From a virus: a stretch of 52,990 bases of DNA. Under the pieces are notes generated by a model, which was given only the letters and a program-made list of their open reading frames with translations, did no database searches and was not told where the DNA came from. Numbering within the stretch: position 1 is the stretch's first letter; each line of letters opens with the position of its first letter. Shown here in pieces: positions 3,001 to 32,401 of this stretch. The translations under genes were made by a program, and so were the position numbers. The stretch lies in the IMG/VR virus record IMGVR_UViG_3300045988_169541, positions 1 through 52,990 of that record. One strand, written 5' to 3'.

Positions 3001-3976
3001 TAGTCGTTATACGGCTCCAGATGGGTCATCTGTTGCTCCTACTGCTTCGGTAATCAGGCCTGTTCTTACGAATGCAACAAAGGAAGAACTTAATGCTGAA
3101 ATAAATATAACAAAAGGATTGATCGAAAATAAAGTATCTCTAGATGTCTATAATGAAAATGATCAATTAATAAAATCAGATATTAGCAATTTACAAGTTA
3201 GTTACAACCAAATTTCTTCTACAGTATCTAAAATTATAAATGGTACCCAAGAAATATCTGGTGTTGTAACACAAAGTAATTTCGTTACAATTTTTTCTTC
3301 AAATAAAAATGCATTAGGGCAAGAAGTTATTGAATCTATTAATGTTGGCGGAGGAGGCGTTACAATTGATGCAAGTAGGATTAATCTTAATGGAGCTATT
3401 AGTGCAAACGGGAATGTTCAGATTACAACAGATGGAAAACTTATTGCAGTTAACGGACAGTTTACAGGAAAGATTACAGCGACAGAAGGAGAAATTGCCG
3501 GACTGAAATTAAGCAATAATGGATTGAGATCATCTGATTTCAATGAGAGTTCGAAAGTAGGCTCTTGTTATGCTAAAGATGGTTTTTCTGTATATGCATC
3601 AGGGAATGGTGTACTTACCCCTTCAACAGGTGGAATGCAAGCCGGAATAATAACAGCAGTAGGAGATTTTATAAGTCATATAACTGGATTGGAAATAATT
3701 GCCAAGGAAACATCGTATAATAATGGATCATCTTCAATAGTTACTGCCTTAAGAATACAAGCTGAGAACAGATATTACGGTACTCCATTTGATCCACCTC
3801 TTGCGATAGAGGTAGTTTCTGGAGATGTATTATTCGGTGGTAAAATGACAGTTAATAATACATCTATCTTTAGAGGTCAAATATATTTAAATCTTAATAA
3901 CATACCAAATATTTCAGGGGCTTCGAATTATTACCTATGTATAAATAGATCAACCGGACAATTAAGTTACAGATAA
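2..3976 (+). CDS. Tail fiber / receptor-binding protein, distal part; the 5' part is 52190..52905 across the circular junction
   Basis: The frame is open from nt 2, with no stop before the track's TTG at 59. It is in phase with 52190..52990 through the repeat. It has three tandem jelly-roll-like modules, a heptad-rich stretch (AEIKTITKTLTEIKAENGE..) and a G/N/T-rich distal end. It follows the tape measure and tail protein. Confidence 0.8.
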   Translation: MVLEDGEDNEDTGDGIIEYLRAVDEKKKIIRKSSENDLRVYLEDTGIDTAKMIRELELIGELSMNYTIEIDDNLSGSTNKTTLQSLIQFISKDFVTNNKFKEYIDQPVRTTDDVKFNSVVAKESIKTGKVTAEEVVSENFTSGLLGVGHRLWNGVLEVSELIVRKTMHVFEIIVQKITSVNGSMLTTPGGGIRISEVEELEDGYKCFFNNDDGTIPNPFVVGDQALHQVFTGKNISRYWRLVTEVGDNHFVLSKTDCESGSDIPKVEDEIIQFGNRTDRSRQNAVLTTSYGLDAPYTAYYSNVNSYSLEGKEDVREGNLRGINDPDFGQLSGSGFYGKNVYLKGIFRLLSGKTVEESIGDVQSNLDNLQVGETNLLDNSNKGWKNSYYLTATIYLGDYKPKEGEECTIVIKGKLGTDKTYFRIFNSGGSVVLTGLFRNMFNADNIATRTFKWKLEQSSVVADNKFINIYAYESSVVAESEIEWVKLVLGNKTSLLWTPSINDQRQIAIDEAGKVVDGIQIGSQNLISKKMMLKWNEKNKNIAVWGQDADGVYLRINEGLLHKNWAGSNEIANPVFDLQFKPDTQYVLSVEWKLAAVQNYDGLAFRIFYTDGTAEWHGLTGTIITKTIARLITKAGKTVQKISASYGSSKANTLIYNISLIEGNKPLQGFPVAEEDQVGANNVNLAEGTKGPFTVEGGTNTYAYKALYIPVIKPNTVYYVNAQNIEFLSGNISKCDFILFDKSIKSYLTTTYHHLYDKNGGIIITRSDFEAQEGYLLCYAGESGHTAGNSVRFTEVMLVEGFLPAPVWAPSFSEQQAEIKTITKTLTEIKAENGEISLRVNEVSERVEEAKQEAIDEAKEYTTIQTYRETDIDLRAEKWDQDTYYPVTIKLSNSETRIEVVSPLNGDFGIPKWSTHELGFSMNCVWRSNGSGWGANVVNRIIEVFECKFTKEIPDTTPVQYILPAGWIRQLTSSSEELIYLRGGGRYLFKIGNNCVAVVHDSRYTAPDGSSVAPTASVIRPVLTNATKEELNAEINITKGLIENKVSLDVYNENDQLIKSDISNLQVSYNQISSTVSKIINGTQEISGVVTQSNFVTIFSSNKNALGQEVIESINVGGGGVTIDASRINLNGAISANGNVQITTDGKLIAVNGQFTGKITATEGEIAGLKLSNNGLRSSDFNESSKVGSCYAKDGFSVYASGNGVLTPSTGGMQAGIITAVGDFISHITGLEIIAKETSYNNGSSSIVTALRIQAENRYYGTPFDPPLAIEVVSGDVLFGGKMTVNNTSIFRGQIYLNLNNIPNISGASNYYLCINRSTGQLSYR

Positions 3977-3988
3977 ATTATAAAAAAC

Positions 3989-4282
3989 ATGGAAATTAAC
4001 TATTTTATTTCAGCAAAAGCAACGGCAACGGTACAGAATATAAATGTATCGCTGAGTGCAGAGTATCAAAAAGAGCAAGCACCGGAAGTTATCTCCGTAG
4101 TAGCAAACGGATACTTGGACGACGGGAAGAAATTCATGAATGCAACCCTTAAATACAATCCTAAGTCCGAGGATTTCAATTCGATTAACGGATCAAATGT
4201 TGACTTGGGTATTATTCAGGGGATTGTTCCATTAATTACGGAATTTTATAGAAAGATTACTGAAACATTCACTAACTACTAA
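3989..4282 (+). CDS. Hypothetical protein (97 aa) downstream of the fiber gene
   Basis: Tightly packed ATG ORF 13 nt after the fiber stop. No motif recognised. Position is compatible with a fiber accessory or chaperone protein. Confidence 0.55.
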   Translation: MEINYFISAKATATVQNINVSLSAEYQKEQAPEVISVVANGYLDDGKKFMNATLKYNPKSEDFNSINGSNVDLGIIQGIVPLITEFYRKITETFTNY

Positions 4283-4286
4283 CAAA

Positions 4287-4577
4287 ATGAAATATAGTTT
4301 TGACGTAAAAGATGTATCAGCAATTGATTTGTTAGGTAATAATTATATCCAATTGCTGGAAGAGAATCAAAATAAAGGCATTCATCAACTTGTCGGAAAT
4401 GCCGTGTATGTGTGCACAAACACAATTGAAATGCATGAAATTGCCAAAAAGATATTCAACGGGGAAGCTGTGGATATGAATGAAAATGAGACAGAATTAT
4501 TCAAAGCCTCAATAATGGATTCAACCTGGCATGTTTTTATTAAAAACGCTATTATCTCTGCAATCAAAAACAAATAA
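4287..4577 (+). CDS. Hypothetical protein (96 aa)
   Basis: ATG ORF 5 nt after the previous stop, followed by a GC-rich hairpin. No motif recognised. Confidence 0.55.
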   Translation: MKYSFDVKDVSAIDLLGNNYIQLLEENQNKGIHQLVGNAVYVCTNTIEMHEIAKKIFNGEAVDMNENETELFKASIMDSTWHVFIKNAIISAIKNK

Positions 4578-7645: not shown

Positions 7646-7670
7646 GATATATTTATTAAGCACTTAGGTA

Positions 7671-7761
7671 CAGAAAAACGGCGTACCTTTCCCGCTGCTT
7701 AATCACCTCATGACTGGCTAAAATCTGCCATTACAACAGATTTACGGGGGTATACGCCGTT
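7671..7761 (-). promoter_or_regulatory. Leader A: long hairpin plus U-tract (terminator/attenuator-like), 31 nt before the paralog A ATG
   Basis: 9-bp outer stem 7677..7685 / 7753..7761 (aacggcgta/tacgccgtt). Inner helices 7691..7694/7745..7748 and 7721..7727/7737..7743. Minus-strand 3' side reads cgccgtttttctg. Confidence 0.5.
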
Positions 7762-7886
7762 AGACAAATATTTTCCTTTCCAAACAACAAAATACAAAGT
7801 ATGGAAAATACAAATCAATAAGGCATAAAAAAACCGCCATACAGCGGGTACTCTTACTCCGCCAGTCATTAGAAGATTAAGCAAGA

Positions 7887-7894
7887 CAAATGTA
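7887..7894 (-). promoter_or_regulatory. Bacteroidota-type -7 box (TACATTTG on minus strand) for cassette A
   Basis: Plus strand caaatgta is the reverse complement of TAnnTTTG. It lies upstream of the leader. The motif alone is expected by chance in AT-rich DNA; its position is the support. Confidence 0.4.
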
Positions 7895-8075
7895 TGAAAT
7901 ATTTTTTGATATTCACAACATCTAAATAAAACTTTCTTTTTTATTGGAAATTTATTCTGTTTAAAGTCCTCAAACTTCTATTATATAGGAATGTAACTTT
8001 TTACAAAACATCTATTTATGTCGAATTTTGGGATATCCGGCAATAGTGCCGGAATAATCAAAATTCTTTAATTAT

Positions 8076-21356: not shown

Positions 21357-21544
21357 GTTTTTTTATAATTTACACATTCAATTTTTCTGTCCACGCAGTT
21401 TTCATGCGGCACCACCGAAAACGGGCAATCAACCAATCCGAATTTCCACGGTTGGTAGTAGATACATTTCCGGCAGTCGGAATAGTTTGTTGACAGACGG
21501 GAAATGATCGGTTTTGGTTGTTTGGGTTTCGGGGTGCGGGGCAT
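21353..21544 (-). CDS. Small Cys-rich hypothetical protein (63 aa)
   Basis: ATGA overlap with mazG. Cysteines are spaced C..C...C...C..C. Confidence 0.45.
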   Translation of the reverse strand: MPRTPKPKQPKPIISRLSTNYSDCRKCIYYQPWKFGLVDCPFSVVPHENCVDRKIECVNYKKT

Positions 21545-21583
21545 ATATTTTATTATTAAAAAGGACAGATACTACAAAACAGT

Positions 21584-21591
21584 TAACTTTG
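21584..21591 (+). promoter_or_regulatory. -7 box TAACTTTG on the plus strand inside a minus-strand intergenic region
   Basis: Matches TAnnTTTG. It precedes a structured GC-rich segment and the micro-ORF. Confidence 0.35.
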
Positions 21592-21686
21592 TATCGGATT
21601 TTAGCCCGTACCGCAGCGAGATATGGCAAGGCTCAAAGCGGGCCGGGGAGTAAACCTCCTTTTTGTTTAACTTAAAAAGTAACATC

Positions 21687-21761
21687 ATGGCTAAAATCCA
21701 AGTTCGGGTTAGAACCCAAGTACGTACTACTGTAAGAACAACTGTAAGAGTACGGAAATAG
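21687..21761 (+). CDS. Micro-ORF, 24 codons: MAKIQVRVRTQVRTTVRTTVRVRK
   Basis: ATG..TAG read directly from the sequence. Periodic Val/Thr-Arg pattern. Tandem actgtaaga(a/g) units at the DNA level. Followed by a terminator hairpin. Coding status is unproven. Confidence 0.3.
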   Translation: MAKIQVRVRTQVRTTVRTTVRVRK

Positions 21762-21771
21762 TTCTAACCAT

Positions 21772-21803
21772 GGGTGGGTGTTAACGGCATCCACCCTTAA
21801 CTT
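21772..21803 (+). terminator. Plus-strand terminator hairpin after the micro-ORF
   Basis: gggtgggtg / catccaccc 9-bp stem (one G-U), 7-nt loop, then ttaactttat. Confidence 0.5.
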
Positions 21804-21848
21804 TATCTGTCCTTTTATATTCATGCTGATTCTTTATTAAAGAGGAAT

Positions 21849-22562
21849 TTATGCTACTAATCCGTTTTGCCTTGATAGGTTTGAAATAATTGCGTACATT
21901 TTATCCAATGCGCCTACACGTTCAGCTACATCAATAAGACTCTCATTTTTCTTTCTGGCGTAGGAACGCAGTGCAATATGATAATTGTAATAAAGGGTTT
22001 GGTAAATATGGTCCCACACATTCTTTTGAGGAACATTGAAGTGCATGGAATATTTGTTTACCAAAGCACGGACTTTATCTCTCATGCTTAATTCAGGAAC
22101 AGCATCAGTAGAAAGAGGGAGTGATAACATGTCTTTCTGCGCTTCTTCCCGAATAGCTAATACCTCATTAACTTTCTGCTCAACGGTTGACAATCTCTTT
22201 TCATGTTCTACCATGATCTGACATTGTTTGAGAAGCATTTCAGCCGGGGAAAGATTGCTTTGTTCTGTTCGCTTTTCTATTTCTAATTGTTCCCAACGTA
22301 AAACCAATTTAGCCCTTGCTTCGTCATTGAATTTTGTTGCGACATATAAACATTCGGTTTTTGTCAGATAATAGCATGGTCTATCTTGCTTATTAGCATC
22401 TTTATACGTGCCCAGCGCAAAATTGCGCCCGGCTATTTTTAACCAAGATTCTTCCATGTTTCGAATTGAACGCATGACATCTTTGTGTTCTCTTTCGGTA
22501 ATCTGTGCAATTTCTAACGATGACATTCTACCATCGTTAGAAGTAATAATCAATTCTTCCAT
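21849..22562 (-). CDS. Phage regulatory protein Rha family (antirepressor class)
   Basis: SSLEIAQITEREHKDVMRSIRNM...CYYLTKTECLYVATKFNDEARAKLVLRWEQLE is the Rha (Phage_pRha) pattern. Confidence 0.7.
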   Translation of the reverse strand: MEELIITSNDGRMSSLEIAQITEREHKDVMRSIRNMEESWLKIAGRNFALGTYKDANKQDRPCYYLTKTECLYVATKFNDEARAKLVLRWEQLEIEKRTEQSNLSPAEMLLKQCQIMVEHEKRLSTVEQKVNEVLAIREEAQKDMLSLPLSTDAVPELSMRDKVRALVNKYSMHFNVPQKNVWDHIYQTLYYNYHIALRSYARKKNESLIDVAERVGALDKMYAIISNLSRQNGLVA

Positions 22563-22871: not shown

Positions 22872-22892
22872 ACGTTGATGAATTATAAGTTA

Positions 22893-22986
22893 ATAAAAAT
22901 AAGAAAGTCGCCGACTTCCTGTTCTTTTGGCAAAGCGAACATAACACTTACAAAGAAGGCTATGCAACTCAGGACTTCGACGACTT
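22893..22986 (-). promoter_or_regulatory. Leader C: long hairpin plus U-rich tract (terminator/attenuator-like), 33 nt before the paralog C ATG
   Basis: Arms 22905..22921 / 22970..22986 pair at 14 of 17 positions, with a 48-nt interior. Minus-strand 3' side reads ttcttatttttatt. Confidence 0.5.
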
Positions 22987-23075
22987 ATAATTTACTTATG
23001 GATATAAGTCACGATATGGTATAAAAAATACCTTCATTTGTAATTTGTGGTGCTCGCTTTGCCAATTGAGCACCA

Positions 23076-23083
23076 CAAATATA
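23076..23083 (-). promoter_or_regulatory. -7 box (TATATTTG on minus strand) for cassette C, overlapping a 12-bp perfect inverted repeat
   Basis: Plus strand caaatata. The inverted repeat tttgtggtgctc(23044..23055)/gagcaccacaaa(23068..23079) overlaps the box. Confidence 0.4.
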
Positions 23084-23186
23084 CGGCTATTATCCATAAT
23101 TGCAAAATTTAATGTAAGATTTTATTTCCTGTCTTCATCGGGCTGAATATTCAGAAATCCCAGGCTTCCATCATCATTATTTTCCA

Positions 23187-31544: not shown

Positions 31545-31550
31545 TTTTGA

Positions 31551-31622
31551 GCCTACTGTCTGGTTCGAACGGATGACCTTCGGAGTACAAAACCGATGCT
31601 CTACCAACTGAGCTAAGTAGGC
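31551..31622 (-). tRNA. tRNA-Thr(UGU)-like, 72 nt, with a weak T-stem
   Basis: GCCTACT-TA-GCTC-AGTTGGTA-GAGC-A-TCGGT-TTTGTAC-TCCGA-AGGTC-ATCCG-TTCGAAC-CAGAC-AGTAGGC. Perfect acceptor and D arms. One U-U at 31:39. Only 3 of 5 T-stem pairs. Confidence 0.55.
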
Positions 31623-32308: not shown

Positions 32309-32331
32309 TTTTGTTAAAATTTAAATTCTGA

Positions 32332-32401
32332 GGTCGGTGCGGGATTCGAACCCGCGTACCCAGTTTTGCGGACTGGCTCCTGACCACTCGGACAACCGAC
32401 C
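32332..32401 (-). tRNA. tRNA-Cys(GCA), 70 nt, CCA not encoded
   Basis: GGTCGGT-TG-TCCG-AGTGGTC-AGGA-G-CCAGT-CCGCAAA-ACTGG-GTAC-GCGGG-TTCGAAT-CCCGC-ACCGACC. Discriminator U. The 13:22 mismatch is typical of tRNA-Cys. C instead of U at position 33. Confidence 0.75.

Follow-up and report, generated by a model that had tools for sequence, protein, structure and literature searches.

A conserved, repeat-bracketed cassette with a putative 24-codon gene, antisense within an early operon of temperate phages of gut Bacteroidota

Layout of the locus

The IMG/VR virus record IMGVR_UViG_3300045988_169541 (positions 1 to 52,990, i.e. 52,990 nucleotides, hereafter the window) carries, between two genes of its minus strand, a compact unit that reads in the opposite direction and consists of a promoter-like box, a GC-rich leader, a 24-codon open reading frame (ORF) and two terminator-like hairpins, enclosed by a perfect 13-bp inverted repeat (Table 1). 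This unit is real, conserved and sharply delimited, its distribution is narrow, and we discuss here its possible identity as a small accessory gene of the phage.

All the parts listed in an earlier interpretation made by a model from the letters of the window, hereafter the sequence-only reading, are present where it placed them. Its outer repeat, described as a perfect 12-mer AAAAGGACAGAT (21559-21570 and 21805-21816), is in fact a perfect 13-mer (P1), and the unit also contains two nested perfect repeats absent from that reading, of 11 nt (P2) and 9 nt (P3). By our own arithmetic, the expected number of perfect 13-nt inverted repeats per 300 nt is about 0.001. The flanking minus-strand genes, also as read earlier, are a gene of the Pfam family Phage_pRha (the Rha gene, stop at 21849) and a gene for a Cys-rich protein of 63 aa (start at 21544), which has no PHROGs or PADLOC match. 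Leftward of the latter follow genes for MazG, HNH, a Lin1244_N replication protein and DnaB, an order that places the unit inside a long leftward early/replication operon.

Table 1. Features of the unit in the window
Feature	Position	Strand	Remarks
Whole exchangeable cassette, 274 bp	21546..21819	+	occupies the Rha/63-aa intergenic slot; similarity to L007, L009 and L019 breaks at both ends
P1 left arm AAAAGGACAGATA (outer 13-bp inverted repeat)	21559..21571	.	perfect complement of 21804-21816
Promoter box TAACTTTG	21584..21591	+	exact fit to the Bacteroidota -7 consensus TAnnTTTG
P2 5' arm GGATTTTAGCC	21596..21606	+	at the start predicted for the plus transcript; fully complementary to 21689-21699 over 11 nt
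GC-rich leader hairpin region (agcccg...cgggc), variable apical loop	21603..21643	+	flanks invariant
T1 hairpin GGGGAG-UAAAC-CUCCUU then U5	21645..21664	+	terminator-like site within the leader; terminator scan
24-codon ATG ORF MAKIQVRVRTQVRTTVRTTVRVRK plus stop	21687..21761	+	length and stop position constant in all variants
P2 3' arm GGCTAAAATCC	21689..21699	+	spans the G of the ATG and codons 2-4
P3 GGTTAGAAC / GTTCTAACC, 9 nt	21707-21715 / 21761-21769	+	encloses codons 8-24 and the stop codon
Inner stem CGTACT/AGTACG, inside P3	21723-28 / 21749-54	+	unaffected by the 12 substitutions of the second allele
Tandem ACTGTAAGA units	21729-37 and 21741-49	+	within the ORF
T2 GC-rich hairpin, 9-11 bp, then TTAACTTTAT	21772..21796	+	putative unit terminator; terminator scan: 11 pairs
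P1 right arm TATCTGTCCTTTT	21804..21816	.	perfect complement of the left arm
50-aa shadow ORF annotated by gene callers	21672..21824	-	judged non-coding

Distribution and exchange of the unit

Loci were fetched from IMG/VR through the Rha gene and the 63-aa gene, from metagenomes by a scan, and from protein clusters and contigs with the 50-aa minus-strand ORF that overlaps the unit as a bait. A near-identical unit is present in 16 IMG/VR contigs, two of which have a Rha protein only 67% identical to that of the window. The metagenome scan retrieved 13 true copies, from human-gut assemblies, plus one chance match (L084), and the 50-aa bait retrieved four protein clusters at 98, 86, 78 and 72% identity. 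In total, the unit is carried by about 190 contigs, some as long as 226 kb, 456 kb and 1.8 Mb, lengths that indicate a prophage. Related terminase genes occur in Alistipes, Prevotellaceae and other Bacteroidota assemblies, and the IMG isolate genomes 2839645069, 2814123184 and 2806310926 contain related prophages. The element that hosts the unit is a temperate phage of human-gut Bacteroidota. The sequence-only reading had named absence from other genomes as a finding that would speak against the unit; it is instead conserved across these contigs, with three diverged lineages (L028/L029, L030/L031 and L110). Every copy lies upstream of the 63-aa gene in one orientation, as read from assemblies, which show the majority form only, and the full 275 positions align collinearly in more than 60 loci.

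Outside this phage lineage, the searches were negative. No INPHARED phage record matched the unit by distant blastn or the surrounding 15 kb by megablast, and no copy appeared among 185,579 GTDB representative genomes scanned with a leader 21-mer and a back-translated peptide pattern. Likewise, we found no analogous repeat-bracketed units downstream of distant Rha homologues. In the viral, metagenome and genome scans the unit was found solely in one phage lineage.

Within this lineage, the slot between the two flanking genes has alternative contents. Among 23 viral contigs, 16 contain the unit and seven an unrelated gene of 183 bp, for an acidic protein of 60 aa without Pfam, PHROG or PADLOC match, which is found in sister phages including L007, L009 and L019. 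The break points of the swap are identical (21545/21546 and 21819/21820), within a conserved junction ...AATAAAGAATCAGCATGAA, and lie 14 and 3 nt outside the P1 repeats. The gene upstream of the unit also varies, being Rha, AntA/ANT or a reverse-transcriptase cassette. The alternation of unit and 60-aa gene at identical junctions indicates an exchangeable cassette, not a miniature inverted-repeat transposable element (MITE) or an inverton, and the comparisons point to the mosaic behaviour of a phage accessory slot. The proposal of a discrete inserted unit is therefore borne out by the presence of the 60-aa gene in the same slot of sister phages.

A MITE-like element, also suggested earlier, finds no support in the single locus, the single copy per genome, the lack of a target-site duplication (the flanks read ...TTATTA and ATATTC...) and the position of the break points. 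More generally, we regard a DNA element as very improbable, both in the form of a MITE or a transposon remnant that ends in inverted repeats and in that of a Bacteroidales-type inverton whose flipping segment is delimited by the 13-bp repeats. It is true that perfect 13-bp repeats around a segment of about 230 bp with a -7 box reproduce the layout of Bacteroidales invertons, and that the loop of hairpin T2 is reverse-complemented in L030/L031, so small inversions do occur here. However, all of the more than 60 loci have one orientation relative to the 63-aa gene, where an inverton would be expected to give the junction TTATTATTAAAAAGGACAGATAAAGTTAAGG in its inverted state; there is one copy in the window and none in the 185,579 representative genomes outside the phage; no recombinase was present among the 18 window proteins scanned, a scan that was not exhaustive; and neither a MITE nor an inverton needs the internal nested perfect repeats.

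Two other candidates were discarded. A replication origin was rejected because the unit is missing from sister phages and iterons are absent; a template repeat of a diversity-generating retroelement was rejected because the window contains no similar second copy.

The sister phages also differ in neighbouring genes. Six of them (L032, at 3442-4431, L033, L034, L037, L102 and L106) encode a reverse transcriptase (RVT_1) of 329-355 aa, 0.4-1.5 kb upstream of the unit, which replaces the Rha gene of the window in L032-L034 and L037 and coexists with Rha in L102 and L106. Its best matches are the PADLOC generic reverse transcriptase, UG17, Drt3a and phrog_1423, and it is accompanied by ORFs of 51 and 119 aa. 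Roughly at the position of the HNH and replication genes of the window, L033 (3303-5384), L036 (1386-3467) and L102 (4077-6153) have a 693-aa DNA methylase with Hint/intein domains.

The plus-strand ORF and the overlapping minus-strand ORF

The plus ORF has 24 codons in every lineage and ends at one position, with TAG, TAA or TAG as stop codon. It occurs as two peptide alleles, MAKIQVRVRTQVRTTVRTTVRVRK and MAKIQVRVRTTVRTTIRTRIRVRK, the second of which differs by 12 substitutions; with four amino acid changes, the plus frame is the least affected of all six. In 200,000 simulations of twelve random substitutions, the ORF stayed intact with four or fewer changes in only 0.4% of cases (P = 0.004). 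The four replacements (Q>T, V>I, T>R and V>I) preserve a strict alternation of cationic and beta-branched residues, with beta-branched or hydrophobic residues at the even positions (AIVVTVTVTVVK) and cationic or polar ones at the odd positions (MKQRRQRTRTRR); no other ORF of 14-45 codons among about 110 loci shows a similar alternation. Furthermore, five isolated changes (21722, 21740, 21755, 21758 and 21761) are all at synonymous third positions. The stretch between an in-frame TTG (21663) and the ATG contains a 1-nt deletion, which shifts the frame, and non-synonymous changes, indicating that the ATG is the start. This substitution pattern supports a coding-type evolution of the plus ORF.

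The deduced peptide has a charge of +8 or +9, with 8-9 Arg/Lys and zero acidic residues, a grand average of hydropathy of -0.5 and a best 11-residue hydropathy window of 0.05-0.10. From these properties, it would be an amphipathic beta-strand, for which a membrane-spanning role is less likely than binding to nucleic acid or to an anionic surface. A comparison of the 32-aa, TTG-started version with 1.84 billion representative proteins gave no matches, a weak negative since such short ORFs are seldom called, and the peptide has no PHROGs or PADLOC match. The statement of the sequence-only reading that it knew of no described family with this peptide agrees with our Rfam, protein and PHROGs searches, which returned nothing for the peptide or the RNA.

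The opposite strand contains an ORF of 50 aa, for which about 190 public contigs have a predicted protein (clusters P0001-P0008). Were it the real gene of the slot, this would account for its remaining open at 50 codons in all lineages and for the overlap, as ATGA, of its start with the stop of the upstream ANT gene in L030, L031 and L110. Nevertheless, its ATG and upstream context lie in the conserved junction, which the alternative 60-aa gene shares. Where both ORFs overlap, it undergoes six amino acid changes and the plus ORF four; over its full length it is only 72-78% identical to the window copy in the diverged lineages, substitutions concentrate on its first codon positions, and the flipped hairpin loop rewrites 3-4 of its residues. 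It also lacks any family match in Pfam (precomputed cluster annotation), PHROGs or PADLOC. We thus give hardly any credence to a minus-strand gene: this appears to be a shadow ORF and a recurrent mis-annotation.

Promoter box, leader and terminators

The Bacteroidota -7 promoter consensus is TAnnTTTG (PMC7366714). The box TAACTTTG fits it exactly and is invariant while neighbouring positions 21579-81 and 21594 vary. The leader is invariant as well, except for its apical loop (21621-21629), which exists in three versions. Hairpin T1 contains two to three G.U pairs, on the plus strand only, in every variant, and in T2 of the window type G.U pairs are likewise restricted to the plus strand. The T2 hairpin, noted earlier as a terminator (21772-21796), was recovered by the terminator scan. 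Its stem is retained with different loops, indicating that selection acts on the stem: L028 has another loop altogether, L110 differs at three loop positions and L030/L031 have the loop in reverse complement. In the latter pair, the loop and its two closing pairs (21779-21789) are the exact reverse complement of those in the window (TGTTAACGGCA vs. TGCCGTTAACA), as would result from a hairpin-mediated micro-inversion.

Folding of both strands and the outer repeat

For the 304 nt between the two flanking genes, the predicted RNA fold has an energy of -94.9 kcal/mol (z -5.8) for the plus strand and -89.2 kcal/mol (z -5.1) for the minus strand, and none of 100 dinucleotide shuffles was as good in either case. 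In L028 it is the minus strand that folds better (-95.4 vs. -85.6 on the plus strand), and neither strand is consistently favoured in these two units. The predicted plus transcript, 21596-21806, has a z of -5.2, whereas the leader of about 70 nt is not unusually stable on its own (z +0.5). The P2 pairing between the 5' end and the start-codon region is present in all minimum-energy folds. The repeats and the fold are more than chance; the promoter box is excepted from this statement. Rfam covariance models gave no match on either strand of 21545-21848, even at E up to 10.

The outer repeat P1 is well preserved, with a left arm that is invariant in 12 of 12 variant types and both arms kept and perfect even in two units that have lost 111 nt between them (L098 and L099, see below). 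With a start at about 21597 and termination just past 21796, neither P1 arm would be within the plus transcript; the terminal repeats cannot then be parts of that transcript, as the sequence-only reading had them, under its own promoter and terminator. The variants in P1 and P2 may point to the other strand. Position 21810 in the right arm of P1 changes from T to C in three lineages, which makes the pair A.C in plus-strand RNA but G.U in minus-strand RNA. Together with 21599 T>C and 21689 G>A, three of three independent variants thus keep a G.U pair if the minus strand is transcribed and give C.A if the plus strand is, a result that for one given strand has a chance of 1 in 8. From this pattern we infer, tentatively, that the long-range helices act in the leftward operon mRNA.

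A structured non-coding RNA domain of the minus-strand operon mRNA, either an element for processing or stability or an excised stable RNA, with P1 as its closing stem and the plus ORF and boxes as incidental features, must accordingly be weighed. The minus strand folds nearly as well in the window and better in L028, the P1 and P2 variants pair only on that strand, P1 brackets the whole unit and outlasts the 111-nt deletion, and the slot normally holds a minus-strand gene. But the G.U pairs of T1 and T2 are on the plus strand, the third-position pattern and the stop-to-stop changes fit the plus ORF, the domain has no Rfam match on either strand and no covariation, and the recurrent deletion removes one P2 arm and the whole leader. 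We find this explanation rather unlikely. The sequence-only reading had considered that the repeats could be part of a minus-strand RNA structure conserved without the ORF: the minus-strand structure may well apply, but the ORF is conserved together with the repeats.

Proposed working of the unit and points for and against it

Our preferred reading, to which we assign a probability of about 0.5, is that of a moron-like, self-contained small-gene cassette of the plus strand, antisense in the leftward operon, with a peptide gated by the leader terminator and by pairing of the start codon, and with an outer repeat that folds the operon mRNA reading through it. Transcription would start at about 21597 from the box TAACTTTG, of the -7 type used by the host sigma-ABfr. 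The first 70 nt or so would form the conserved GC-rich leader that ends at T1, where many transcripts would stop as a short RNA. In those that read through, the 5' end GGAUUUUAGCC could pair with the AUG region GGCUAAAAUCC, a complementarity that is evident in the RNA, and P3 would hold the rest of the ORF, so that translation would be gated twice. The ORF, as its substitution pattern supports, would encode the 24-aa cationic peptide, and T2 would stop the transcript short of an antisense run into Rha. Finally, P1 is outside the span from promoter to terminator, and its probable place of action is the leftward operon mRNA, which would run across the unit. In that mRNA, 260 untranslated nt may be closed into one domain by P1 together with the mirror-image helices of P2 and P3; the strand preference of the variants is a slight hint of this. 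The stop of Rha and the next start would come within about 50 nt of each other, perhaps limiting polarity or the formation of a duplex with the antisense RNA.

A two-strand design that joins all these elements is more speculative, and we consider it doubtful as a whole. In it, the plus strand would be a doubly gated mRNA for a hitherto undescribed cationic amphipathic beta-strand peptide of 24 aa, directed to nucleic acid, the ribosome or the cell envelope and acting as a toxin, an exclusion factor or a regulator, and on the minus strand helices closed by P1 would loop the unit out with the downstream replication genes still expressed.

Several observations weigh against the small-gene cassette. 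The motif TAnnTTTG occurs 66 times in the window against 65.9 expected, i.e. at chance density, and the match of the box therefore carries little weight: the promoter postulated by the sequence-only reading is at its place and fits the consensus exactly. A variant from several independent samples (L098, 2255-2539, and L099, 1442-1726) has a 111-nt deletion, flanked by CA microhomology and equivalent to 21575-21685, by which the TAACTTTG box, the leader with T1 and the 5' arm of P2 are lost, whereas the ATG, the ORF, P3, T2 and both P1 arms are kept. The leader is thus dispensable, the retained portion being the ORF part, and the box may not be the sole promoter, or not a promoter at all. The ORF in these units is either silent or served by another promoter, for which TTTG-N19-TATATTTT at 21521-21551, with an imperfect box, is a candidate by our own reading. 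A minor lineage (L032, L033 and L036; 5-8 contigs) has ATA instead of the ATG in an otherwise intact unit, in which the peptide would be dispensable or lost, and the coding signal rests on essentially two alleles. The GC content of the unit (0.394) does not differ from that of the phage (0.375 in the window, 0.38-0.39 in the flanks). As for the strand on which the structure acts, the overall tally of wobble pairs is 5 vs. 3, which is not significant and leaves a mixed assignment. A test for covariation found none (43 of 56 pairs are constant, and shuffles score just as high), and was uninformative because the family is nearly invariant.

Part of these observations fit better the main rival, a cis-antisense RNA. 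In this alternative, the active product is the plus RNA, of about 70 nt to T1 or about 210 nt to T2, and the peptide is either of minor importance or one side of a dual-function RNA. Loop-loop contacts of mirror-image hairpins would join this RNA to the complementary intercistronic stretch of the operon mRNA and lower the expression of the downstream genes (those for the 63-aa protein, MazG, HNH, the replication initiator and DnaB), an effect akin to that of P22 sar or lambda oop. A promoter box and two plus-strand terminator-like hairpins within an operon of the opposite strand agree with it, as do a leader that is invariant even where the ORF has 12 changes, the ATG>ATA lineage, which leaves everything else intact, and the many stable stem-loops, suited to antisense kissing. 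Nor is there another evident target in the phage: complementarity to the plus RNA elsewhere is only 9-16 nt, the longest being of 12-16 nt, with chance-level E-values. Conversely, a purely non-coding RNA leaves the coding-type pattern of the ORF unexplained, the deletion in L098 and L099 takes exactly the short-RNA part and spares the ORF, the start region of the next gene is uncovered (21545-21558 is outside the predicted transcript) and the short RNA is not unusually stable by itself. On balance, we see the cis-antisense RNA as possible but less probable, and keep the peptide-encoding cassette as our preferred reading.

In about 190 public contigs the strand chosen by gene callers is the wrong one, and the probable 24-codon product is below standard length cut-offs; the unit is thus a concrete case of the small-protein and small-RNA content that pipelines miss in prophages of gut Bacteroidota. 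If the peptide is made, its strictly alternating cationic and beta-branched sequence would represent an unusual class of effector for a phage accessory gene, and an insulating effect of the outer repeat on the operon mRNA, if real, would illustrate one way for an operon to carry antisense cargo. The natural variants, with the ATG lost, the leader deleted or the 60-aa cassette in place, are ready-made controls.

Other features of the window

The Rha gene belongs to one of three minus-strand pairs in the window in which a gene for a small protein precedes one for an antirepressor-type protein: 22578-21849 (Phage_pRha), 15503-14379 (KilA-N) and 7645-6745 (AntA). The motif RPPRRNEGKLL recurs in two or more of the small proteins. 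Two further structured intergenic regions (22872-23186 and 7646-8075, with z of about -5 to -6) are each located upstream of a pair of genes for a small protein and an antirepressor-like protein. They contain long-range inverted repeats (TCGCTTTGCCA and its complement; a 13-nt perfect hairpin at 23043-80; a 23-nt repeat at 7696-7718 and 7861-7883) and minus-strand TAnnTTTG boxes (23076-83 and 7887-94, respectively), and are possibly operator and promoter regions. Inside the Rha gene, in antisense, the plus strand has a terminator-like hairpin, GCCCAGCGCAAAATTGCGCCCGGC then TATTTTTA (22408-22441), with a weak, sub-threshold Rfam match to VrrA (18.5 bits vs. a gathering score of 50). ARAGORN identified two phage tRNAs on the minus strand, tRNA-Thr(TGT) at 31549-31622 and tRNA-Cys(GCA) at 32330-32401, and none in the unit.

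Comparison with known systems

The unit resembles several known types of element in some respects. With MITEs and transposons it shares terminal inverted repeats, here perfect over 13 bp. As in retron msr-msd regions, flanking repeats surround a structured RNA, but no reverse transcriptase adjoins the unit in the window, and the RVT_1 gene of sister phages is a separate cassette, with or without which the unit occurs. It also departs from leader-peptide attenuators, since there is no plus-strand gene after T2 and the next gene, Rha, is convergent.

P22 sar and lambda oop are short RNAs with their own promoter and intrinsic terminator, directed against an early operon near antirepressor-type genes. 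The predicted short RNA of the unit would likewise be antisense to an early operon near such genes. Unlike them, the unit does not overlap any ribosome-binding region or coding end of the operon genes, carries a conserved ORF, is far more structured and is bracketed by repeats.

In the invertible promoters of Bacteroidales, inverted repeats surround a segment of 200-300 bp with a TAnnTTTG box (PMC8748976, PMC4747536). The unit has this same layout; however, it is found in one orientation in all assemblies, no recombinase was seen among the neighbours scanned, its promoter faces inward across the whole segment and it contains nested internal repeats.

Type I toxin-antitoxin loci include hok/sok, tisB/istR and aapA1/IsoA1, with candidate loci in Bacteroides thetaiotaomicron (PMC7366714). 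The very short ORF in a highly folded mRNA, its location on a prophage, the pairing of the 5' end of the RNA with the translation start, including the G of the AUG (in silico only), and a fully complementary RNA from the other strand are all reminiscent of them. The defining feature of the toxins fails, however, because the peptide is hydrophilic, strongly cationic and without a membrane-spanning stretch. Neither did we see a dedicated antitoxin promoter, the minus strand inside the unit being devoid of TAnnTTTG, and the only foreseeable complementary RNA is operon read-through.

Phage morons are independent units of promoter, gene and terminator, variably present between phage genes (PMC2920897). 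The unit differs from them in that it replaces a gene instead of being inserted between genes that are adjacent elsewhere, that its cargo amounts to no more than an ORF of 24 codons behind an elaborate RNA leader, and that a perfect 13-bp inverted repeat brackets it. It also departs from two criteria for morons, a distinct GC content and occurrence in several classes of phages (PMC2920897), because its GC content is not distinct and it is confined to one lineage. On the other hand, like morons, it is a discrete, prophage-borne unit between conserved phage genes, variably present in a slot with alternating cassettes, opposite to the surrounding operon and with an apparent promoter box and terminators of its own, known here as sequence motifs alone. 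In all, the family of peptide and leader sequences appears to be new, as judged from our searches, but the kind of element is already known, and the unit is most like a phage moron with a small gene, rather than a mobile element.

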